IMG/VR virus record: IMGVR_UViG_2806310659_000001
Span: 13,142-77,141 of that record
Reading direction: 5' to 3' (one strand)
Source of the DNA: a virus
Taxonomy: Duplodnaviria > Caudoviricetes
Length of the DNA: 64,000 nt
The notes under the pieces were generated by a model. It worked only from the letters and a program-made list of their open reading frames with translations, ran no database searches and was not told the origin of the DNA. This document shows, one piece after another, positions 12,815 through 53,211 of this stretch. A program made the translations under genes and the position numbers. Position 1 is the stretch's first letter. The number at the start of each line of letters is the position of its first letter.

Positions 12815-13288
12815 TTATAGACCGCTGATGATTTGGTCGTATCGCGTCCTGTTGCGAAGACCGACACGGATTCGGAATGTGGCTGGCACGACCCGCGTAT
12901 CTATCTGCTGCTCATGGGTGAGCAATTCGGGTCCGGATACCTCTTCCGCGCAATGTATCTGGGCGGTGTATCCGTCGTTCATCTTGAACTTGAGGCCCTC
13001 AATGGGAAGAAGTACCGCACGAATCACCGACATCGCCTTGTTGGACAATGTGCGGTCCGTCGTGATGACGGTGGCCTGGATAAGGCACTCGTCATAGTTC
13101 TTCTCGTAGTCGACGTGGCCGCCGGGTAGGCGGATGAACGTCAACAGCGGTTCCGGGTCTGACTGGTCTAGCCAGTCGTCGTCTTCCCAAATGCCCATCT
13201 TGGTTCCCGGAAAGACTTTGCCGAAGAGATCGATCATGAGTTGTTCGATATCGACGAAGTTGTCCTTGAACCAGTCGGGAATGATCAT
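12815..13288 (-). CDS. tail terminator
   Basis: 157 aa, IPDWFKDNFVDIEQL..RLPGG; directly upstream of major tail. Confidence 0.7.
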   Translation of the reverse strand: MIIPDWFKDNFVDIEQLMIDLFGKVFPGTKMGIWEDDDWLDQSDPEPLLTFIRLPGGHVDYEKNYDECLIQATVITTDRTLSNKAMSVIRAVLLPIEGLKFKMNDGYTAQIHCAEEVSGPELLTHEQQIDTRVVPATFRIRVGLRNRTRYDQIISGL

Positions 13289-34732: not shown

Positions 34733-34960
34733 TTAAGAGAAGATCGCTTTCCAGAGGCGCTTACCGATCGGATCGGCCCACCACGGGAGCGAGTTGAGGA
34801 GGTGCAATGCAACCCCTGCAATGACCACCCGGGTCAGGATTGGGTGGGTCAATAGCCATTCGTCGACAACGACGGAAAGTAGTTGGTCCTCTTCGCACGA
34901 GAACTCGTAGGCGATGATGCCCGCGGCCATGATTGCCCAGGCCTGCTTGCCGGTGATCAC
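34733..34960 (-). CDS. small membrane protein (start approximate)
   Basis: AW..AAGIIAYE..LLS..HP..ALHLLN pattern; two hydrophobic segments. Confidence 0.55.
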   Translation of the reverse strand: MITGKQAWAIMAAGIIAYEFSCEEDQLLSVVVDEWLLTHPILTRVVIAGVALHLLNSLPWWADPIGKRLWKAIFS

Positions 34961-35154
34961 GAGACCAGCCAAGGGCGCGGGGCTCCGAAGATCAGCTCCC
35001 AAAACTCAGGTTCCGGGAGGGCCGTGTCGTCCTTGCGGGAAGCCATGCATACGCGACGGTCCCTGGTCTTGTCGGGCCACTGCCGGCGCCAGTGCGAGCC
35101 CCCCATCCACGATGGGCGTCCAGCTCCGCAGTCGGGGCAGGTTTCGGCGAACAT
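34957..35154 (-). CDS. hypothetical protein
   Basis: AGGGAG RBS before ATG; CPDCG. Confidence 0.5.
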   Translation of the reverse strand: MFAETCPDCGAGRPSWMGGSHWRRQWPDKTRDRRVCMASRKDDTALPEPEFWELIFGAPRPWLVS

Positions 35155-35431
35155 CGGTACTCCCTGGATCGGGGGTTGCAAGTTGAGGCCGGCCCGTGGC
35201 GCGCGAACAGGGGCCGGCCGGGGCGCTTCGACCCGCGGGGAGCGCCCAGCCTGGAAGTTGGAAGGAGCCTTTTGGTAACCCGGTGACTCACGCAGGGTGG
35301 CGGCCACTCGACAGCCTCTCTGGGGCTGTTCGCCTGCACTCATCCGGGACCGCGGAGTTAAAGGGATAACCCACCACTAGCCGCGGGGTTCGGCGTTTTG
35401 TCAGGCGGAGCCGTTCCAAATCAACCGCCCG

Positions 35432-35513
35432 TGGAGATGTTCGGTGCTGCCCCGAAGTCTTGCCTGGTGCCGCGTGCGGCTTTCGTCAGACAATCGAACC
35501 TGGTCGCATCCCC
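35432..35513 (-). ncRNA. minimal tmRNA: tRNA-like domain only, no mRNA-like domain
   Basis: GGGGATG/CATCTCC acceptor stem with G3.U70 and A73; stemless D-loop CGACCAGGTTCGA; helix TTGTCTG/CAGGCAA; GAC connector; T arm TTCGG-GGCAGCA-CCGAA. Confidence 0.85.
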
Positions 35514-35518
35514 TAGTT

Positions 35519-36296
35519 TGGAACCGGGCTGAGAATACACCCGTCCACAGTGACCTTTACCGGATTATTGGTTCCCGGCTTTTCCACGTCATTCCTGAAC
35601 GTAGTCACCACGCCCGGTCGGTTACGCCGACCACTCGTTACACCGAAAGCTACTCCGCGACGTTTGTTTCACACTGGATTCGCGGGTCCAGCGCTGCACT
35701 ACTTGTCTACGAACCACCGTCGCCTTGCGGGCTCGTGATGGCCCTGGTTCCGTAACGGCCAGGGATTAGAGGCGCTTTTGCTCCTCGGCGGGGGAAGAAC
35801 TTTGGCTTGTTTCTGTTCTCAAAACAGGAAATGGTGAAATATAAGCAATTTCGTTCTAACTAGAGACGTGCTTCCCCATGAAGGTCCGCACCCTTTTGAG
35901 GTACAGAATGCTTCACGCCTCTCGTGCTTCAGGCTGGCGACCTGTTTCGCACTCTACTCAGCCGTTCCCGAGCCGTCGCCCGTTACTAAGCGTTTTCATG
36001 GAACCCGCCCTTGCCCGCCAAGGCTTGGACTGAGACCCCCTCCGCACCACAAGGAGCTTGACCGATAGCCGTTTCTTCCCGCACGTACGGGTTGGTGGTC
36101 CCACTGGTTCACAGCCCTGGACCCTGGCGTATCTCGCCCCCTGGCAGCCCCCGAAGGAACTGCTCAAGGATTGGATTGCATGGGGTACCCTCTCGGGCGG
36201 CAAGGTTGTCAGCCTCGCCTTTCAGCATCTTGCGATGCCTTATCCGCCATGCCGGAAATGTGCCCGTTCAGTCGGTGGGCTAACCGATGCAATCCT
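35519..36296 (-). ncRNA. large structured non-coding RNA, GOLLD-like
   Basis: ~780 nt with no credible ORF; many stems closed by GNRA/UUCG loops on the minus strand; long-range helix GGATTGCAT/ATGCAATCC; upstream -10; adjacent to a tRNA-like gene. Confidence 0.7.
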
Positions 36297-36297
36297 C

Positions 36298-36330
36298 ACT
36301 ATATGAACCGAAATCCTCGAATAGTGAACA
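36298..36330 (-). promoter_or_regulatory. putative promoter of the ncRNA block
   Basis: -10 TATAGT at 36303-36298; weak -35 TTCACT with 19-nt spacer. Confidence 0.45.
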
Positions 36331-36492: not shown

Positions 36493-36861
36493 TTAGGTCT
36501 GCATCAGTTCGGTGAGCGATTCCCGCTCGCGCCTGACGCGCTCATACTCTTGCTCAACATCCCTCGGCAGTGTTGGCCCCTGCGCGATGACGGGACGGCC
36601 CGACCAGACGAGGTTGTCTTTGTGGGGGTCCTTGCCGGCGCGGAACTTGACACGGTATCCGCGGCACATGGGATGGCCGTAGTAGGCGCGGGCCACAAGG
36701 TCGTGGACCATGCAGGTGGATTTACCGATGTCGACCTGGAGTGAGCCATTGGCAGCACGGCGCAGTTTCTTGAACCGGCGCCGGCGCTCGTCCCATATCC
36801 GGCCGTCTGGCGTTGCCCGGTAGCCGGCATAGCCGGGGATGGCGGCTAACTGCTCATCCAT
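36493..36861 (-). CDS. NUMOD4/HNH-like protein (degenerate)
   Basis: IPGYAGYRATPDGRI..VHDLVARAYYG..DNLVW. Confidence 0.65.
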   Translation of the reverse strand: MDEQLAAIPGYAGYRATPDGRIWDERRRRFKKLRRAANGSLQVDIGKSTCMVHDLVARAYYGHPMCRGYRVKFRAGKDPHKDNLVWSGRPVIAQGPTLPRDVEQEYERVRRERESLTELMQT

Positions 36862-38118: not shown

Positions 38119-38814
38119 CTAACCGATCTCATCGACGAATCCGATCTCCAGCGCCTCCGTGGCGCTCAGCCACCAATCCTTACGGGTCCAGCGCGTCCGG
38201 AACTCGTCGGCGGTGATCCTGCCGCCCGAGCGGGCCACGAAGATGTCGGCCACGCCGGCGCGGACCATCTGAATCCACTCCAGAGTGTCCTCGATCTCCC
38301 CTACCTTGCCGCGGGCGCCAGAGGCCGGCTCGTGCACGAGAAGATGGGCATGGCGGCCGATCACGCGCCAATCGGCGGCCTGGAGCAGGATCGCGGCCAT
38401 GCTGGCGGCGTAACCCCGAACCGTCATGGTAACGAAGTGGCTACCACCGCCGCGGGTCGAGTAGTTGTGGATCTCGTCGAACAAGTGCATCCCCTCCACC
38501 GTCGAACCGCCCGGGGAGTTGATGGTGATGTTCATCGGGCAGAACGGGTGCAGGCGGTCCCAAGCCTGGAGAGTGGTCAGGGCCTGGTAGACGTTGTCGA
38601 TCCTCACCTCCCCGTAGAAGAGGTGATGGAATTGCAGGTAGTCCTGCGTCGTGGCCAGATCCTCGGCGCGGCGACGCTCCGCCAAATAGATCTCCCGGAT
38701 ATCGGCGTCAGCCCTCTTCTCGCGGAGCTGCTCCCGGTAGAGGTCGGCCTCGGCCTCCAGATTGGCGATCAGCGCGGCCTCGTGGGCGGGGCTGACGGCG
38801 AGCTTGTCGTTCAC
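38119..38814 (-). CDS. ClpP-like protease
   Basis: ITINSPGG, GYAASMAAILLQA, LLVHEP, DWWLSATEALEIGFVDEI. Confidence 0.9.
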   Translation of the reverse strand: MNDKLAVSPAHEAALIANLEAEADLYREQLREKRADADIREIYLAERRRAEDLATTQDYLQFHHLFYGEVRIDNVYQALTTLQAWDRLHPFCPMNITINSPGGSTVEGMHLFDEIHNYSTRGGGSHFVTMTVRGYAASMAAILLQAADWRVIGRHAHLLVHEPASGARGKVGEIEDTLEWIQMVRAGVADIFVARSGGRITADEFRTRWTRKDWWLSATEALEIGFVDEIG

Positions 38815-39040: not shown

Positions 39041-39754
39041 TCATGCTGCACTCTCCTGAAGGGCGGTTACATCTGCGAGGGTCAGACCGGTTTCGTATTT
39101 CCATTGGCGGTACTCGCGCAACTCCGCCGCCATCTTTCGTCGGTCCATCGTTACATGACACTTCCTACACATCGGCATGTAGAACTCGGGATAGAGCGAA
39201 TACCGCATTAGTGAGCCAGAGCCCGACCCCTTACCAGGCCCCAATATCTCGGCCGGATCAGTCCCGTCATAAGCCCAGTCCTTAGCGTTTTCCCCGCACT
39301 CAATGCACCGGTAGCGGCTTGCAGGTCCCCATAATGTCCGAACCCTGACGTGCGCGGCGGTGAAGTCGCAAGGACTGGCCAGCGTATTGCGAATGGGCGC
39401 GTCAACGGAAAGCGACGTATCTCCGCGTGCGCGAGACCAATGCAATCGGCAATATCCGTGCGCCTTATGCTTTCGATCGCACCCCTCGATCCGGCATCCG
39501 CGATCAGGATCAAAGATCCTAAGCGGGCCGTCGATATCACACCCCTGGCGGAAGCGTTCGTAGTGGCCACGGCAGTAGCCCCTGACCGTGGACAGGCGGT
39601 CACACCCCTTGGCTGTGCACAGCTCGGGATAGTCGGGAACGCGATGTCGCTGGTTCATATCAGCTCCGCGGCGCGCCCGCTGGTAATGAGCACTGCAATA
39701 GCCGAGCGATCGGACCTTGCGGTCGCACCAGTCCACTTTACAGATACTTGTCAC
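39041..39754 (-). CDS. HNH-type endonuclease with three Cys/His repeats
   Basis: Three CxxxxCDRxxxxxGYCxxH repeats; AHVRV..WGPAS..CIECG..WAYD..PMCRKCH. Confidence 0.75.
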   Translation of the reverse strand: MTSICKVDWCDRKVRSLGYCSAHYQRARRGADMNQRHRVPDYPELCTAKGCDRLSTVRGYCRGHYERFRQGCDIDGPLRIFDPDRGCRIEGCDRKHKAHGYCRLHWSRARGDTSLSVDAPIRNTLASPCDFTAAHVRVRTLWGPASRYRCIECGENAKDWAYDGTDPAEILGPGKGSGSGSLMRYSLYPEFYMPMCRKCHVTMDRRKMAAELREYRQWKYETGLTLADVTALQESAA

Positions 39755-41073
39755 GCGACCGATTCCATGTCCAGCTCGCCCCTGTCGAGCAGCTTCGTTT
39801 CGTGTTCGAGGAATACTTGTGACTTGGCCTTTAGCAAGACCGGAACCAGGCCCTCCTGACGAATTACCACTCCCTCGTCGACCGTCTTGGGGTCGGATAG
39901 GGGAAGCACATCAGGATTGACCTCACCGTACAACTCGGCATAACTCCGGTCCATGAACGAGTCGACAATGTCGTCCGTGGTGTCACCGGTGGTGTCGTAT
40001 TCCGGATCGAAGTCATGGATGAAACGGAACAATTCCGGTGTCCACTTCAGCCCGCGCTCCTGGCAAAACTGCTTAACGCCATCCCACGAGAGGTCGCTTA
40101 GGTGACCCTGTCGGTTGATGTGAGCGACGCGATAAACGTATAGTTCCGCTTCGTTCCGAGCCAAGTGATACGTGTAACCCCTTTGAAGAGGAGCACCGTC
40201 AGGCGTCCAGCCGATAAGCTCGCCATAGACAATGAATCCTTCCGGGATTAGGTTGGCAACCCTCTTGCCGTATTCGGTCCAGAGGTCGAATTTGTAGAAA
40301 TGCTCCTGGTTCGGGTTGTTCGGGTCCTTGATAACCTTTCGTGAGCCGAAAACCACGTCGTACTCCCACTCGGGGATGTTCACGCCGAGGCGCTTGAGCA
40401 GCTTCTCATACCACTTCAACTGGCGAAGGACCGGAACCCTCCCGCCACGCCAGGATGTCCCGTGGAGCTTCTGCGTGATGACCACTTCCCGGCCGGCGCG
40501 CAAGACGTGCCTGGAACGGAAGTAACTGTCAGTTTCGAGGTGCTCGGGAAAGACTTTCTTGTCCACGCGCTTAAACGCCCGCTCCACCTTCGACCTGGCG
40601 GGCTGGCCGGCCTTGCGGGGCAGCTCGTACTTCTTGCAGATCTCGTGGTCGCCGATCTTGTCGAACAGCACCACCGGGTGGCTTACGTCGGCCAGCTCGG
40701 CACGCAGCTTGTCGATGTCCAGGCCGGTGTAGGCCAGGGACTCCAGCGGCATGAGGAGTGCGTTGGAGCGGTGCCCGCGGAGTTTCAGCGCCTTGATGCG
40801 GCGGTTGTCCTCCAGGTAACCCGTCTCGCCCTCGTCCTTGTTCAGGTCGGCATGGCGGAACAGGTTGTTCTGGTGGGCGTAGTCGTCGCTCAGTTGCGTT
40901 TCCGCGGTGAACAGCACGCGGAGTTCCCCGGCCTCAATCCCCCGCTGTGTGAGGGCCTGGTGACCGAGAATGGGGATGCCGACAAGGTTGTCCAGCCCGG
41001 GCAGGTCCACCGGGGCGGGAACACGGACGATGGTGGCCGCGTAGTTGACGTTGGCCGGCTGGTCGAATTTCAT
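39751..41073 (-). CDS. RNA ligase (DRB0094/Rnl2-like)
   Basis: Motif I TQKLHGT, VYGELIG, EGVVIR, LKAKS. Confidence 0.85.
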   Translation of the reverse strand: MKFDQPANVNYAATIVRVPAPVDLPGLDNLVGIPILGHQALTQRGIEAGELRVLFTAETQLSDDYAHQNNLFRHADLNKDEGETGYLEDNRRIKALKLRGHRSNALLMPLESLAYTGLDIDKLRAELADVSHPVVLFDKIGDHEICKKYELPRKAGQPARSKVERAFKRVDKKVFPEHLETDSYFRSRHVLRAGREVVITQKLHGTSWRGGRVPVLRQLKWYEKLLKRLGVNIPEWEYDVVFGSRKVIKDPNNPNQEHFYKFDLWTEYGKRVANLIPEGFIVYGELIGWTPDGAPLQRGYTYHLARNEAELYVYRVAHINRQGHLSDLSWDGVKQFCQERGLKWTPELFRFIHDFDPEYDTTGDTTDDIVDSFMDRSYAELYGEVNPDVLPLSDPKTVDEGVVIRQEGLVPVLLKAKSQVFLEHETKLLDRGELDMESVA

Positions 41074-44233: not shown

Positions 44234-45667
44234 TCAGAGCAGGTTTTCGTTTATCTTTGGCTCCGATATTTGGGCCAGGAACCACGCCGTAGGAACGCTT
44301 CCGCCCTGTCCGCCACGGTGCCCGTCGACTTTCGTCAAGACCCCTCGCTTGACGAGCTTGTCGAGCTGCCGCTGCGCCTTCTTGCACTGCGCATCAGTGG
44401 GGCGGGGGGTGTCGTACAACTGCTTGGCAGCCTCCTTGGCGGTCAGCCCGTCCGGGCCGGCGCCGTTGACCGCTTTCGTGAAGTCGAACTTCACCACCTC
44501 CATCCGCCCCTCCTCGGGGAAGTAGTGGAGATGCCAGGGACCCACCTCGTTGGCGGGCTGCTTGACGTGGTGGAACCTCACCACCAGATCACCCGGGTCG
44601 CCGGTCAACTGAATGACCGAGCCGGCCCCAGAGGTCAGCCACGTCGAGCCGAACACGTCGTTGATCCCGACCGGTCCGTTCTGCGGGTTGGCCTTCCTGT
44701 TGTGGTGCAGCTCGCAGATCTGCACGCCGCGTGCCAGCAGTGCTTGTCTGGCCCGGTTGTAGGCCGCGGCCGTGGCGTCCTCGGACAGCCCCACCACCGC
44801 GTCCTTGAGCGAGTCCACGTACACCGTGCCGGCGCCAGCCTCCAGCGCCATCCTTGCCAGCAGGGATGGGTCCACTGCCAGGTCGGAGATGGGCGGACCG
44901 GGGCGGAACAGTAGCCGGCCCGTAACTCCTGCCATCTCCTCGGCATCGAACTGCCGTCTCATCGAGCGGCGGATCTGTCGTGGGCGGTCCATCGCCAGGT
45001 ACAGGATGGGTCTCTCGGAGCAGGCGATAGGCAGACCGAGGACCGTGCTGTCGAGCCCGAGCTGTCCGCGGACGAGCATCCCGGCGAGGGTGGTCTTACC
45101 CAGCCCCATACCGCCGGCGATCATCAGTGCCTCGCCCTCGGCCCAGAGGATGTCATCGCCGTCGCCCCACACGATCACGCTGCGATCGTCGGCACCGAAC
45201 ATCCACTCCGCGCCGTCAACGGGAGGGAAGTTTCCCCAGACATCGATTGCTGGAGCGGAATCGCCTTCCACTGGCCGCTGGGGACCTCCCCCGATAGATG
45301 ACACCGGCGAGGGCGTAGCGGCGCGCTCAGGGACCATGCGGGCGCCGACCTTCGCATCGGCCCCGGCGAAGCCCGAACGAATGGTGGCCTCGATCTCATG
45401 GTCGTCCAGGCCGGCATTGCGGGCGGCTAGTGTGAGAGTGTCCTCGACGGTATGTTTGTCGATGGCCCCGGCGTTAATCAGGCCCCCCATATTGAACGCT
45501 GCTACGTTCAGGGTGTGATTGCGCACCCCTTCCGGGGCCACCTCCACATTGCGCGCCTCTAACTGGAGGGCTGCCGCGGCGTAGGCGTTGTTCGGGGCGA
45601 CCGGGTTGGCGATCTTCCTGGGCTCGGGCTTGGGCTGTTCAACGCGCTGAAGGAAGCCGGTAGTCAA
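44234..45667 (-). CDS. primase C-terminal domain plus RepA-like (AAA_25) helicase
   Basis: EGVRNHTLN..A..AGL..EIEATIRSG PriCT-like domain; Walker A GGMGLGKT; VYVDS; LHHNRK; FGS. Confidence 0.85.
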   Translation of the reverse strand: MTTGFLQRVEQPKPEPRKIANPVAPNNAYAAAALQLEARNVEVAPEGVRNHTLNVAAFNMGGLINAGAIDKHTVEDTLTLAARNAGLDDHEIEATIRSGFAGADAKVGARMVPERAATPSPVSSIGGGPQRPVEGDSAPAIDVWGNFPPVDGAEWMFGADDRSVIVWGDGDDILWAEGEALMIAGGMGLGKTTLAGMLVRGQLGLDSTVLGLPIACSERPILYLAMDRPRQIRRSMRRQFDAEEMAGVTGRLLFRPGPPISDLAVDPSLLARMALEAGAGTVYVDSLKDAVVGLSEDATAAAYNRARQALLARGVQICELHHNRKANPQNGPVGINDVFGSTWLTSGAGSVIQLTGDPGDLVVRFHHVKQPANEVGPWHLHYFPEEGRMEVVKFDFTKAVNGAGPDGLTAKEAAKQLYDTPRPTDAQCKKAQRQLDKLVKRGVLTKVDGHRGGQGGSVPTAWFLAQISEPKINENLL

Positions 45668-47156
45668 GTCCCTCCTCCAGTACGCGCTGCACGTCCTCGA
45701 ATGTCTGCCAGCTCAGGAACTGGCCGTCCTGCCAGACGGGCTGGAGCAGGCTTCGTCGTTCCGCAGACTCGCCGGCCTCCTGAACCAGGACGAGGCCCCC
45801 GCCAAAGGCATTCGCCCGGCGTCCTACCGCGAGCCGGCCGGTAGCACTCGTCTTGGTGCCGTCATCGGTGATCGGGTCCTTCTTGAGGTTCACGCCCTCG
45901 CCGTCGACCTCCGCCCAGGTGGCTTTCATCGCCGAACCGAACGTGTCGCGGGTCTGGTACTGGTAGCTGAACGAGCCCACGCCGAACACCACGTTGGTCG
46001 AGGCGTAGCACAGTTGCCGCATCCTCTCGGTGATCGAGCGGGCGCGGTCGAGCGTGATCGAGTCGCCGTAGATGGCGCCGACGTGCGAGTCCAGTTCGAT
46101 GAAGCCTCGGGCGTTCTTGTGCCCGCCGAAGGTGTTGTAGAGCAGGTTCAGCACGCCCCACCACTCGTGGGACATGTATGGCGCCTGCGGGTTACCACAG
46201 AGGATCTTCTCCGGGTCGCCCGAGTCGGGGCGGATCACCAGCTTGCCCTCACGTGTGAGGATCTTGTTCTTCAGCGCCGGCAGGTAGGTGGCCAGCACAC
46301 GCCACAGGTCGAACGTGTCGGACACGATCGAGACCGTCCCCTTGGGGTACAGGTCCAGCAGACGGTTGATCGTCTCCAGCTCCCCCACGGTGGCGATTCC
46401 GGTGCACATGACCGAGTGCTCGGTGGCCGGGACCGACTGGGCGGAGTAGAACCCGCCGTAGTAGCGGTCGATCCAGTCCAGGGAGACCAGGGAGTCGGTG
46501 CCGAAGAATGACAGCAGGTGGCCGGCGCCCGACGCCGCGGCGGACTCGTGCGAAGACATCCCCCGGTAGGAGAAGTCGTGGCACTGGTAGTTCACGGCCG
46601 AAGGGGCGGCGCCGGTCAGCTTGGCCGCCTCCTCCAGGATCTTGCGATACTCACGGGCGATCGTCGCCGAGGTGGACGCCTGCCAGATGCCGGCCGACAG
46701 CCCGGTCTCGACGAAGTTTGTCAGCCAGAAGAACCGCGGGTCGGTGTTCTCCACCGTGAAGGACGGGATGCCGATCGGAACCGGCGTGCCCTCGGGGATC
46801 GAGCAGAACCGCAGGGGCAGGTACCCCAGCTTCCATAGCTCCCGAACGTGCTCCGAACCGATCGACTCGGCGGCCGGGATACCGAGCACCTGCGCGATGC
46901 GCCCCTCGTAGAGGTCGCACACCTCGTCCACATCCGACTCGAAGAACGGCTCCCACTCCTCCATCAGGTACTTGCGGAGGTAGGCCTGCAATCCGAAGTG
47001 GACCACGTGGTTGACGCCGGGTATGCGCGACTTGCGGTTGGTGTAGTTGGAGTAGACGCGGGTGACGTTGCCGCTCAGTTGGTATTGCCGAAGATGGTCC
47101 AGCTTGTAGGCGTCAGTGCGAAACAGGGGGGCAACTGGCTCGTAGAGCGTGTTCAC
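45639..47156 (-). CDS. NAMPT-like protein (probable NARP1 Namat)
   Basis: TDAYKLDH, HDFSYRG, SVPATEHSV, VSIVSDTFD, VIRPDSGDP, IYGDSI, VFGVGS. Confidence 0.9.
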   Translation of the reverse strand: MNTLYEPVAPLFRTDAYKLDHLRQYQLSGNVTRVYSNYTNRKSRIPGVNHVVHFGLQAYLRKYLMEEWEPFFESDVDEVCDLYEGRIAQVLGIPAAESIGSEHVRELWKLGYLPLRFCSIPEGTPVPIGIPSFTVENTDPRFFWLTNFVETGLSAGIWQASTSATIAREYRKILEEAAKLTGAAPSAVNYQCHDFSYRGMSSHESAAASGAGHLLSFFGTDSLVSLDWIDRYYGGFYSAQSVPATEHSVMCTGIATVGELETINRLLDLYPKGTVSIVSDTFDLWRVLATYLPALKNKILTREGKLVIRPDSGDPEKILCGNPQAPYMSHEWWGVLNLLYNTFGGHKNARGFIELDSHVGAIYGDSITLDRARSITERMRQLCYASTNVVFGVGSFSYQYQTRDTFGSAMKATWAEVDGEGVNLKKDPITDDGTKTSATGRLAVGRRANAFGGGLVLVQEAGESAERRSLLQPVWQDGQFLSWQTFEDVQRVLEEGLDYRLPSAR

Positions 47157-48000
47157 TGAAGTCCTTCACGTGTTGAAGCATGTACGTTTCGGTCGGCACG
47201 ATCACCGTGGCCACGCCCACCCTGTTGTGCCCGGGGTGGGAGTCGGTGGTGTAGATGTGCCGGTAGTGCTCGCGCAGGTCATAGGCGCGACCGGAAAAGA
47301 TCCCGTGCGTCACCCATAGGCCGAGCTGGTCGCGATGCAGGCCGGTCTCTTTTGCCAGGCCCATGAACGTCCCGCCGCCGTCGCAGATGTCGTCGACCAC
47401 CAGGTAGCGACCGTGCCGCGGGAGGTGGTCTTTCATCTCGATGCCGAGGATCTTCCCGGTATCGAACTCGCGGACCTTCTCCGCGCGGTAGAAATCGAGC
47501 CCCAGCTCGTGGGCCGCCGTGTAGGCGCGCTGAGCGGCACCCTTGTCAGGTGAGATCACACCGTCGTACCGCTCCCGGTGATCGGCGTCCTGTAGCGCTC
47601 GTAGCAGCAGGGGGAACGGATCTAGCTGCGTCAGGTTTCGCAGGTAGCGACCAATCATCGGCGAGTGTGCATCGATGCCGATAACCTGCTGCGGGTTCAT
47701 GGAGTTGATCAGCTCCGCATACACTCTGGCGCCTTCCGGCTCGCCGCGGTCAGCCCGGGCGGCCGGCAAGTAGGGCAGCATCAGAACGAACGGCATCTGC
47801 CGCTGGTGGGCGACGTTGGCCCACAGTGCCGCCTTGACGAGATCATCGGCACTTGCCCCGCGGACATCGGCCACCCACACTGCCGCGGCTCCCACGCTCG
47901 GCAGGTCGCGCAGATGGTGCTCGCCGCCAGGGAAGGTGAACGAATCGCCCACACCTTTGAGGTAGCCGTTGGGGGTGTGTAAGCGGAGGTGGACGGTCAT
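47113..48000 (-). CDS. ribose-phosphate pyrophosphokinase-like protein (probable NARP1 Adps)
   Basis: FPGGE, PYLPAARADR, DAHS, SPDKGA, VVDDICDGGGTF, THGIFS. Confidence 0.9.
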   Translation of the reverse strand: MTVHLRLHTPNGYLKGVGDSFTFPGGEHHLRDLPSVGAAAVWVADVRGASADDLVKAALWANVAHQRQMPFVLMLPYLPAARADRGEPEGARVYAELINSMNPQQVIGIDAHSPMIGRYLRNLTQLDPFPLLLRALQDADHRERYDGVISPDKGAAQRAYTAAHELGLDFYRAEKVREFDTGKILGIEMKDHLPRHGRYLVVDDICDGGGTFMGLAKETGLHRDQLGLWVTHGIFSGRAYDLREHYRHIYTTDSHPGHNRVGVATVIVPTETYMLQHVKDFSEHALRASCPPVSH

Positions 48001-48686
48001 GCGGACTTCCTGATCTCGGGTGAGGGTTGGATGAGCCACGAGTAACGCCGATCGCCGATCGCCGATGGCGGGGCGCACACGTAACCGCCGGCGCCGCGGT
48101 AGTCGATGCCCGGCTTAACACCCGCGCGGTTGCCGTCGCCCGTGGGCGAGACGTAGTAATGAGTCCCTCTTGGGGTGTCCACCTTGCCGTGGACATCTGG
48201 CAATGCATCGGGTCCAAGTTGGGCCAGTGATGCCACCCCGGTCGGTCCGTCGATGTCGATCACGTCGAACATCACTCCCGTGGCCAGACCGATGTTGGAG
48301 TCGGGCATATCGGTCCACCATCTACGGACCTGGTCTGGGTCCAATGTTGCGTCCTTGAAACCGCGGGTGTGCGGGTAGGGCTTCTTGCCATCACCGAGGA
48401 AGTCGGGCCGCCTCGGATCGGTGTAGCCAACGGGTGCGAGCGGGAAGACCGGCCAGCCCTGTTTGGCGTACCAGAGGGCGGACGGACCCAGCTTGGCGGG
48501 ACGGTCGTGCTTGTCGATCTCCGCCTGGAGTCGATTAGCCTCGGTTACGTCGTCACGCTGAGCGGCGTCACACCACTGCTGAGTTAGGGTGAACACCTCC
48601 GTGGGCTTGCACGTCGGGTGAGACGTTTGGCCCACGAAGGTGACCTCCATGACGCCGGCGCAGTCCGAACAGGTCGAGTAGAACAT
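47997..48686 (-). CDS. bifunctional DNA primase/polymerase (Prim-Pol) catalytic domain
   Basis: ALWYAKQGWPVFPL, DATLDP..RWW..NIGLATG, VIDID, TPRGTHYY, DYRGAGGYVCAPPS. Confidence 0.9.
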   Translation of the reverse strand: MFYSTCSDCAGVMEVTFVGQTSHPTCKPTEVFTLTQQWCDAAQRDDVTEANRLQAEIDKHDRPAKLGPSALWYAKQGWPVFPLAPVGYTDPRRPDFLGDGKKPYPHTRGFKDATLDPDQVRRWWTDMPDSNIGLATGVMFDVIDIDGPTGVASLAQLGPDALPDVHGKVDTPRGTHYYVSPTGDGNRAGVKPGIDYRGAGGYVCAPPSAIGDRRYSWLIQPSPEIRKSA

Positions 48687-52299: not shown

Positions 52300-53211
52300 T
52301 CAGAAATCCCCCGGTTCGACTTGTAGCGTCTTCAGGCCAAGCGCTCGCCACATCTCGACGACTTGCGTACGGTCATCGAGCACGAAGCGGACGTTGTACT
52401 TGCCGCGGATGTGCTGGTTGAACAGGTCGTACTTGACCTGGTAGTCGGGCAGCTTGTTACCGCGGTCATCCACCGCCTTGGTCGGGCGCATGTGGAGTTC
52501 GTCGTAACCACCGATCAGATTGGCCTCTAGCCAGTCCGCGGTGACATCTCGGCAATCGTCGTCGCGTCCCGAGACAATCAGTATCGACACGTATTCGCCG
52601 ACGACCCTGACAAGCTCTGCGATCGCCAGATCGGGAGCGTCCTCACCCACCCGCGAGTAGTCGTACGGACTACGCCCGGTCATGTGCGCGAGCGTGCCGT
52701 CAATGTCGACGATGATCGCCTCGGGCAAGCCAGGAATCCATTCGACTGGCTCGATGACGAACGGCTCGGCGGTGACCAGCGGCCACTTCTCGACTGGCCA
52801 CTTCTTGGCCTGCTGATCGATCACCTTGTCGCCGACGTAGCGATCACCCTTCAGCATCCGCGAGTAGTCGTGGCGCTTGCACTCGTCGAGAGGGGTGACT
52901 ACATCTACTACGCCAAAGTCAACGCCCAGTCGCGTTGCCAGTCGCGCCCACTTCCGCAGATACGGAGCGTGAAGGTGTGTCGCGTCCACGACGACGCTCG
53001 TTCCGTTCCGCAGGAAAGCCTCCACCTGTGCTTCCTCGGCAACGGTAACTCGATCCTCATCCTCCCTCTTCCCCGTCCAGTAGGAGCCGAGCAACATGAA
53101 TCGAAGCGAGTCACGATTAACGACGACGGCTCCAATGCCCTTGGCGATCTCCGCGGCGCGGGTCGACTTGCCGCTACCGGAGTAGCCACGCATACAGGTC
53201 AGAGTTGTCAC
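52300..53211 (-). CDS. polynucleotide 5'-kinase / 3'-phosphatase
   Basis: P-loop GYSGSGKST, NRDSLR; HAD motif DIDGT, SGR, DDR. Confidence 0.92.
   Translation of the reverse strand: MTTLTCMRGYSGSGKSTRAAEIAKGIGAVVVNRDSLRFMLLGSYWTGKREDEDRVTVAEEAQVEAFLRNGTSVVVDATHLHAPYLRKWARLATRLGVDFGVVDVVTPLDECKRHDYSRMLKGDRYVGDKVIDQQAKKWPVEKWPLVTAEPFVIEPVEWIPGLPEAIIVDIDGTLAHMTGRSPYDYSRVGEDAPDLAIAELVRVVGEYVSILIVSGRDDDCRDVTADWLEANLIGGYDELHMRPTKAVDDRGNKLPDYQVKYDLFNQHIRGKYNVRFVLDDRTQVVEMWRALGLKTLQVEPGDF

Follow-up and report, generated by a model that had tools for sequence, protein, structure and literature searches.

What follows the large non-coding RNA of a mycobacterial prophage that carries no tRNA gene, and what could the two RNAs do together? 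The question is raised by a non-coding block (positions 35155-36303) in a 64,000-nucleotide (nt) stretch of viral DNA, IMG/VR record IMGVR_UViG_2806310659_000001, positions 13,142 to 77,141, referred to below as the window. The block is read on the minus strand, as are the RNA elements and genes of the window located by coordinates below. In the initial annotation, which named no strand, it was regarded as a possible RNA-only operon made up of a giant RNA, a mini transfer-messenger RNA (tmRNA) reduced to its tRNA-like domain (TLD), and a further structured RNA. It was found that a GOLLD RNA is followed here by an element which, judged by its sequence, is homologous to the TLD-only tmRNA known from mycobacteriophage DS6A, and that this element occupies the slot of the first tRNA behind GOLLD in related phages. 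GOLLD and the TLD-only tmRNA are each of a known kind; new are their adjacency without a tRNA array, a co-varied elbow subtype of the TLD, and the commonness of phage mini-tmRNAs in metagenomes.

The identity of the giant RNA was clear. In an Rfam scan of the window, GOLLD (RF02032) was the sole family at its gathering score, and its 3' domain was placed at 35526..35923 (model positions 1-416 of 416; 215.6 bits, E-value 1.3e-59, gathering threshold 150); 200.9 bits were obtained for this domain with our own nhmmer hidden Markov model (HMM) as a control. The Rfam model spans the conserved 3' domain only; the variable 5' half, outside the model, was located at 35924..36262 by blastn and by an alignment of GOLLDs, in which the conserved core starts at about 36262. 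When GenBank phages were searched by blastn, 32 records, all of them Mycobacterium phages, covered positions 36261-35527 at 67.7-71.9% identity. Bongo, PegLeg, Rey, Nanosmite and prophi86-1 were among them, and the taxonomy of the matched records was Vilmaviridae/Mclasvirinae, the Bongo/PegLeg/Rey type being what we take to be Cluster M. GOLLDs of this type share with the window not only this identity over about 735 nt but also the prophage setting and an HNH neighbour. The length of about 735 nt fits the total of about 700-800 nt for GOLLD with a variable 5' domain, and the large RNA called GOLLD-like in the initial annotation is GOLLD.

The setting is a prophage, yet neither the window nor the whole 77,141-bp contig contained any tRNA or tmRNA gene detectable by ARAGORN, as the initial annotation had noted for canonical tRNAs in the window; only the tRNA-like mini-tmRNA follows GOLLD. 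The locus was assigned to a prophage because most frames supported by GC content at third codon positions lie on the minus strand and because phage replication and RNA-repair genes stand upstream of the RNAs. In the whole 5.0-Mb genome, 50 tRNA genes and one tmRNA (tag ADSHQRDYALAA) were found; smpB and ssrA are each present once in the host and are absent from the prophage. No tRNA was detected by ARAGORN in the GOLLD linker of the window. Both Mycobacterium abscessus prophage records, prophi86-1 and prophiT49-2, annotate a tRNA-Gln or an undetermined tRNA in that linker (L002:4415-4488 and L003:4417-4490), so that the GOLLD of prophi86-1 differs from that of the window both in its linker and in its follower, which in the window is the mini-tmRNA. 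Mycobacterial tRNA clusters with GOLLD were reportedly described by Morgado in 2020. In mycobacteria, an association of GOLLD with tRNA arrays and with HNH genes has been described (PMC6582537, PMC9569102), and the clusters of Behra 2019 (PMC6582537) carry GOLLD within tRNA arrays, whereas the window has no array. According to Kretsch et al. (bioRxiv 10.1101/2024.12.08.627333), GOLLD forms a 14-mer cage and tRNAs are covalently present in its linker; ribosome binding of GOLLD in pull-downs is cited there as well.

Between the last GOLLD helix and the first nucleotide (G1) of the TLD, a spacer of 12 nt was read, GGUUCCAAACUA (35514..35525), which confirmed the few nucleotides reported earlier and contained no terminator-like feature. 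The TLD itself is 82 nt in length (35432..35513), and its ends read GGGGAUG...CAUCUCC-A. The 7-bp acceptor stem (35513-35507 with 35439-35433) contains G3.U70 and is followed by discriminator A (35432) with no encoded CCA. In place of an anticodon arm, a 7-bp P2 helix is formed (35493-35487 with 35466-35460), closed directly by a short inner hairpin (35480-35469), and the T arm consists of a 5-bp stem and a 7-nt loop (35456-35440). Such direct closure of P2 is a feature of the mini-tmRNA family described below, in whose actinophage-like group the hairpin reads GAAANCCGCACGCGG. Standard pairs make up all three stems, acceptor, P2 and T (19 of 19), and of the modelled P2 positions just the outermost is left unpaired. 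The elbow departs from the family norm of GGNUUCGA and T-loop UUCRANY: the D-loop analogue is AGGUUCGA, with AG at 35501-35500, and the T-loop (35451-35445) reads GGCAGCA, differing from the canonical U54 U55 C56 R57 A58.

The acceptor closes after 82 nt, and there is no mRNA-like region; no tag was found by ARAGORN, and no pseudoknots were present. A reading as full tmRNA was also tried and rejected, as neither a tag frame nor a second acceptor closure was found further downstream. When both strands of the 5.0-Mb genome were searched with a permissive descriptor (G1, G3.U70, six Watson-Crick pairs, A73, an adjacent 5-bp/7-nt T arm, 60-130 nt), 16 matches were obtained, namely three tRNA-Ala, the window TLD and 12 chance matches. 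At 12 chance matches per genome, the number expected by chance within the 16-nt slot after GOLLD is about 2e-5.

The TLD was further compared with a family of similar elements. A pattern scan of IMG/VR (GGGGNTG-N3-7-GGNTTCGA-N30-60-CANCTCCA) returned at least 120 loci; a full acceptor and T stem were present in 109 of the 120 listed, representing at least 81 distinct elements of 61-82 nt. A covariance model, R1, was built from 21 IMG/VR elements, with neither DS6A nor the window in the training set and with P2 playing no part in the choice of members. In this set P2 paired in 87.5% of cells, and all eight of its pairs changed on both sides. When 89 members were aligned to R1, 93.8% of cells paired versus 66.7% in shuffles, the alignment being fitted to the model, and again all eight P2 pairs varied on both sides. 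The mini-tmRNA family is a real structured RNA. G3.U70 and A73 were kept in 89 of 89 aligned members, and T-loop positions U54, U55, C56 and A58 in 85, 80, 86 and 85 of them, respectively.

With R1, the unannotated DS6A element (L261:28478-28557) scored 60.6 bits and the window TLD 46.7 bits (E-value about 2e-8 in 155 kb and 1.2e-7 in 877 kb); scores stayed at or below 31.2 bits for tRNAs and for full tmRNAs represented by their 3' ends. The window TLD was the sole R1 match in its own 5-Mb genome at an E-value of 1e-6 or below. These values bear out the TLD of the initial annotation as a tmRNA-type domain.

TLD-only mini-tmRNAs of 61-85 nt were common in viral and environmental contigs (IMG/VR loci L141-L260 and L263-L297; metagenome loci L298-L415) and formed two classes by length, one of about 63 and one of about 79 nt. 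No other tRNA was present in 96 of the 120 listed IMG/VR loci; in the remainder the element often stood 1-13 nt from a tRNA. ARAGORN calls overlapped the mini-tmRNA in only 3 of these 120 loci. One 84-nt member (L346:1105-1188; 51.4 bits) has a canonical T-loop and an expanded, atypical D-loop analogue, GUGUUGGCACGA, and possibly represents a further structural variant within this family. An unannotated 73-nt element of phage Bongo (L004:8206-8278), flanked by tRNA-Thr and tRNA-Asp, has the acceptor GGGGGUG...CAUCUCCA (G3.U70) and a T arm of canonical form and scored 25.8 bits with R1; prophiT49-2 has tRNA-Ala at the matching place, and the Bongo element is probably a missed tRNA-Ala-like gene.

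The closest described counterpart is the TLD of DS6A (tmRNA Website entry Phage__Mycobacterium.9), which shares with the window TLD a mycobacteriophage origin, a length of about 80 nt, a 7-bp acceptor with G3.U70 and A73, a 5-bp T stem, a P2 closed by a near-identical hairpin (GAAARCCGCACGCGG), and the lack of an mRNA-like region. The inner hairpin of the window, ACGAAAGCCGCACGCGGCAC, agrees with that of DS6A at 18 of 20 positions and differs at two. The DS6A element differs in its canonical T-loop UUCGAUU with a GG D-loop analogue, where the window has GGCAGCA and AG, and in its location: its TLD lies between gp33 and the DNA pol III gene, and DS6A has no GOLLD. The entry 'Mycobacterium phage DS6A (TLD only)' appears in the list of Hudson, Lau and Williams 2014 (PMC4131195), and a DS6A-like molecule is said to inhibit tmRNA strongly, perhaps via SmpB titration (PMC4131195, PMC11915505, citing Mao et al. 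2009). Our literature search found no description of a phage TLD-only tmRNA besides DS6A. The suggestion of an undescribed system was thus only partly upheld, since this kind of tmRNA had already been listed for DS6A (PMC4131195), whereas its pairing with GOLLD was found nowhere else among the loci and genomes searched.

Standard tmRNAs (RF00023; host ssrA and Bongo) likewise have a tRNA-like domain with G3.U70 and discriminator A, and share GGGGNUG...GGUUCGA, the start of P2, GAC before the T stem and the CUCCA 3' end; the 5' end of the window TLD resembles the phage and host tmRNA 5' ends, and its 3' end has the same geometry. In contrast, standard tmRNAs are 355-403 nt long and possess pseudoknots, a resume codon and a tag frame, none of which occurs in the 82 nt of the window element, and the latter falls below the Rfam threshold for RF00023. 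Tag-less organellar tmRNAs (jakobid and oomycete mitochondria, RF02544; two plastid genes of about 65 bp; PMC11915505) also consist of the tRNA-like domain only. They differ in being organellar and mostly permuted, and show no sequence match to the window TLD, for which RF02544 gave no hit.

Scans for the inner hairpin motif yielded 35 viral and at least 118 metagenome loci (153 listed), among which 37 had a closed TLD, amounting to at least 25 distinct elements. Three of them carried the T-loops GGCGGCA, GGCAGCA and GGCAGUA (L285, L339 and L397), and a further scan added L419, which was chosen by its T-loop. Together with the window, five variants with the T-loop GGCRGYA are known. They are mutually 63-86% identical, the other four being 63-80% identical to the window copy, and show compensatory changes in the T stem. 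The D-loop analogue was AG in five of five variants versus none of 20 canonical members, which have GG (Fisher p = 1.9e-5, kinship ignored). As compared across these sequences, the T-loop and the D-loop analogue have changed together in this rarer subtype. Numbered as in tRNA, four positions have changed (G18 to A, U54 to G, U55 to G, A58 to G), and G19-C56 is retained; the four changed positions are partners of the tertiary pairs of the tRNA elbow. The deviation was not taken for decay, because the stems are intact and the combination of T-loop and AG recurs in four other contigs with compensatory changes. The Rfam tmRNA model detected 13 canonical mini-tmRNAs at 49.6-75 bits, and none of L285, L339, L397, DS6A and the window.

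The position of the TLD was compared with what follows GOLLD elsewhere. The 120 listed GOLLD-motif loci included 75 that were GOLLD-like, reduced to 60 distinct ones with at least 100 nt downstream. A same-strand tRNA stood within 25 nt of the 3' end in 11 of these 60 (at 6-18 nt) and at 26-400 nt in another 11, and 38 had none. In prophi86-1 and prophiT49-2, tRNA-Phe is found at +10, and Nanosmite, the closest GOLLD relative, has an 81-nt 'tRNA-Undet' at about +14; as in the window, the 3' end of these GOLLDs is thus followed by a tRNA-type gene at a distance of about 10-14 nt. The Nanosmite 'tRNA-Undet' was considered as a mini-tmRNA and ruled out (9.6 bits). The 5' start of the Bongo GOLLD directly adjoins the 3' end of a tRNA-Asn.

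On these grounds, we favour on balance a reading in which GOLLD and the TLD homologue are parts of one precursor cut by RNase P, with the TLD damping host trans-translation via SmpB. A single precursor would start at a promoter upstream of GOLLD, behind a TATAGT hexamer, and host RNase P would cut it at G1 of the TLD, freeing the TLD and setting the 3' end of GOLLD. The TLD, with its alanine identity marks G3.U70 and A73, would then bind host SmpB and, as the literature on DS6A-like molecules suggests, damp or divert host trans-translation during phage growth. Co-transcription and RNase P cleavage are plausible because a tRNA starts 6-18 nt after GOLLD in related phages; by this positional argument, co-transcription is quite likely and RNase P processing at the TLD likely, with somewhat more reserve. 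By analogy with DS6A, an SmpB-directed action has about an even chance of being correct. The initial suggestion that the TLD serves as an RNase P signal was accordingly borne out as regards position (a tRNA at 6-18 nt behind 11 of 60 GOLLD-like ends), with the cleavage kept as a presumption. In mammals, RNase P acts at a tRNA-like structure to make the 3' end of the long non-coding RNA MALAT1 and releases the small tRNA-like mascRNA. If cleavage occurs at the TLD, the likeness would be one of analogy only, as the organisms and sequences are unrelated.

Several observations weigh against this reading. The fold energy of the TLD was not significant (z = -1.14), the element is missed by the Rfam tRNA and tmRNA models as well as by ARAGORN, and when 111 nt containing it were scanned alone, the best Rfam match was tmRNA_permuted at 10.3 bits (E-value 1.6). 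In a genome-wide run of the tmRNA model, seven tRNA-sized matches outranked it, and its R1 score was the lowest of the 89 family members. Without U54, U55 and A58 in the T-loop, the TLD may be recognised differently by RNase P, SmpB or EF-Tu. None of the sequencing runs listed as holding the locus is an RNA run. A sigma-70-like consensus scan called no site upstream of GOLLD, and both promoter and terminator are weak readings. The co-occurrence survey proposed in the initial annotation likewise failed to bring up a second pairing: no mini-tmRNA was found by R1 in 100 listed loci with the GOLLD 3' motif (813 kb; best score 31 bits), no match to the GOLLD HMM, which detects the window and three phage controls, was found in the 120 and 153 listed mini-tmRNA loci, and neither RNA reached threshold in 150 other genomes of the genus, in which the mini-tmRNA search used strict filters with 31 candidates scored per genome. 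The adjacency of GOLLD and TLD may have no function of its own, since the pairing was seen nowhere else and neither RNA was found in those 150 genomes.

Other searches for relatives of the locus gave similar results. Four metagenome contigs (X2, X3, X4 and X6) match pieces of GOLLD, diverge from the window below 35514/35512 and contain no relative of the TLD. The combination of a GOLLD end with GGGGNTG was sought in 185,579 species genomes, the genome of the window being left out, and the four matches were dismissed as chance, with no GOLLD sequence upstream. The TLD 5' pattern matched twice in IMG/VR, both times by chance inside coding sequence. No match to phage records was obtained by megablast for the 15 kb around the locus, and for the region behind GOLLD a relative was found neither in phage records nor, except for a 25-nt GC hairpin, in 60 related genomes.

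Only part of the single candidate promoter of the initial annotation was retained. A -10-like hexamer TATAGT can be read at 36298..36303, roughly 35 nt before the conserved start of GOLLD, and ATATAGT likewise precedes GOLLD in prophi86-1 and prophiT49-2. The consensus scan that called no site there gave its sole match inside GOLLD, on the conserved AAUAAU loop, with 0.5 matches expected by chance.

Behind the TLD, a 3' trailer of 245 nt (35187..35431) follows. The third structured RNA proposed for this region was not substantiated: the fold of 35431-35180 had z = -0.02, with 97 of 200 shuffles folding as well, no Rfam match was found, and blastn against the regions downstream of the closest mini-tmRNAs (L285, L339, L397) gave nothing at an E-value below 0.66. 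Contigs X2-X4, which come from three runs of one metagenome study and have flanks unlike those of the window, share with the trailer an 85-nt island (35349-35265), the copies differing at 4-6 positions (roughly 93-95% identity); the 23-nt core of the island had no exact IMG/VR match. A GC-rich 9-bp hairpin (35219-35187; z = -0.88), just before the ribosome-binding site of the next gene, may be a terminator. Neither this hairpin nor one at 36394-36356 performed better than shuffles. In the simplest view, the 245 nt would be a trailer ending in the GC-rich hairpin.

The block is flanked by an HNH endonuclease gene directly upstream of GOLLD (36493..36861; phrog_959, E-value 1.8e-12) and downstream by a gene for a 65-amino-acid (aa) product with a CPDC motif (34957..35154), whose ATG is preceded at 8 nt by a GGGAG ribosome-binding site. 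No Pfam or PHROG family was assigned to this product, and in a longer, 128-aa reading from 35343 the first half looks non-coding. The initial annotation had joined the RNAs with RNA ligase, polynucleotide kinase (PNK) and ClpP genes into a module. The genes are present on the minus strand, with a ClpP-like protein encoded at 38119-38814 (Pfam CLP_protease, 83 bits), RNA ligase at 39751-41073 and PNK at 52300-53211, and nothing ties them to the RNAs: they lie 2.6, 4.2 and 16.7 kb upstream, with HNH, helix-turn-helix (HTH) and other genes intervening. The ClpP-like gene has early genes around it and is distant from the structural module (0.4-22.7 kb), and its product also matches head-maturation-protease PHROGs. 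Ligase and kinase form an ordinary phage tRNA-repair pair, and a functional tie of the three genes to the two RNAs is not needed. At 45639-48078, a nicotinamide phosphoribosyltransferase gene (phrog_448, E-value 2e-176) adjoins one for ribose-phosphate pyrophosphokinase (phrog_619); NAD+ salvage pairs of such kind have been reported as phage counter-defence against NAD-depleting systems.

The extended module, in which GOLLD, the TLD and a third RNA would act with RNA ligase, PNK and ClpP in translation rescue or control, could be defended by the location of the three protein genes upstream on the same strand, and by the RtcB ligase beside the tRNA array in related phages and the RtcB-like ligase in DS6A. 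It is scarcely tenable, given an unsupported third RNA, the genes standing between, the everyday role of the ligase/kinase pair, the alternative match of the ClpP-like protein, the lack of GOLLD-TLD co-occurrence in relatives, and the fact that a tag-less TLD gives no ClpP substrate. The TLD could instead be a dead remnant, left when a Bongo-like ancestor with a tmRNA and about 20-30 tRNAs around GOLLD lost its array. In related phages GOLLD does stand beside a full tmRNA and large arrays of tRNAs, of which neither window nor contig retains any, and the lowest family score, the non-canonical T-loop and the missing Rfam match would suit such an origin. We nevertheless consider it improbable: 19 of 19 stem pairs are intact although five of seven T-loop bases depart from the consensus, four unrelated contigs have the same T-loop and AG analogue together with compensatory changes in the stems, and the architecture, including the inner hairpin, is that of the free-standing mini family, not of a deleted Bongo-type tmRNA.

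A more active role is given to the TLD if it is a tag-less rescue factor, which would be charged with alanine, enter stalled ribosomes with SmpB, donate its alanine without adding a degradation tag, in the manner proposed for tag-less tmRNAs of mitochondria, and so aid translation in the infected cell rather than block rescue in the host. G3.U70 and A73, kept in 89 of 89 members, agree with this, and organellar tmRNAs without a coding sequence have been argued to help with incomplete mRNAs (PMC11915505); yet without resume and stop codons a ribosome cannot terminate on the TLD, and the sole cited experiment (Mao 2009, via PMC4131195) found inhibition, so that this role appears unlikely. The TLD might also remain joined to the 3' end of GOLLD and, shown on the 14-mer nanocage, recruit or trap SmpB, alanyl-tRNA synthetase (AlaRS) or ribosomes. 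The cage, linker tRNAs and ribosome pull-down of Kretsch et al. (bioRxiv 10.1101/2024.12.08.627333) and the spacer of only 12 nt speak for tethering, and RNase P might fail to act on the variant elbow; the acceptor/T-stem stack needed by RNase P is intact, however, and the pairing with GOLLD is not conserved, and there is little to expect of this alternative. Taken one step further, GOLLD and TLD would be one device, the TLD being tethered to or loaded in the 14-mer cage so that SmpB and AlaRS decoys shut down host rescue in the lytic phase, and A18/G54-G55-G58 in place of G18/U54-U55-A58 would keep the TLD from normal tRNA processing. This is a very long shot; if true, it would provide the first concrete cargo and function for GOLLD.

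GOLLD has a solved cage structure and no known function, and its ties to tRNA genes are the main clue. At this locus a tmRNA mimic is the one tRNA-type element that accompanies it, a fact that points towards ribosome rescue and away from codon supply. In viral metagenomes, TLD-only tmRNAs are common, with at least 81 and at least 25 distinct elements in the two scans, and escape current tools, as mini-tmRNAs are missed by ARAGORN and the subtype with co-varied D-loop and T-loop is not detected by the Rfam tmRNA model. If mini-tmRNAs titrate SmpB, blocking of host trans-translation would be a widespread phage strategy, testable with simple reporters.

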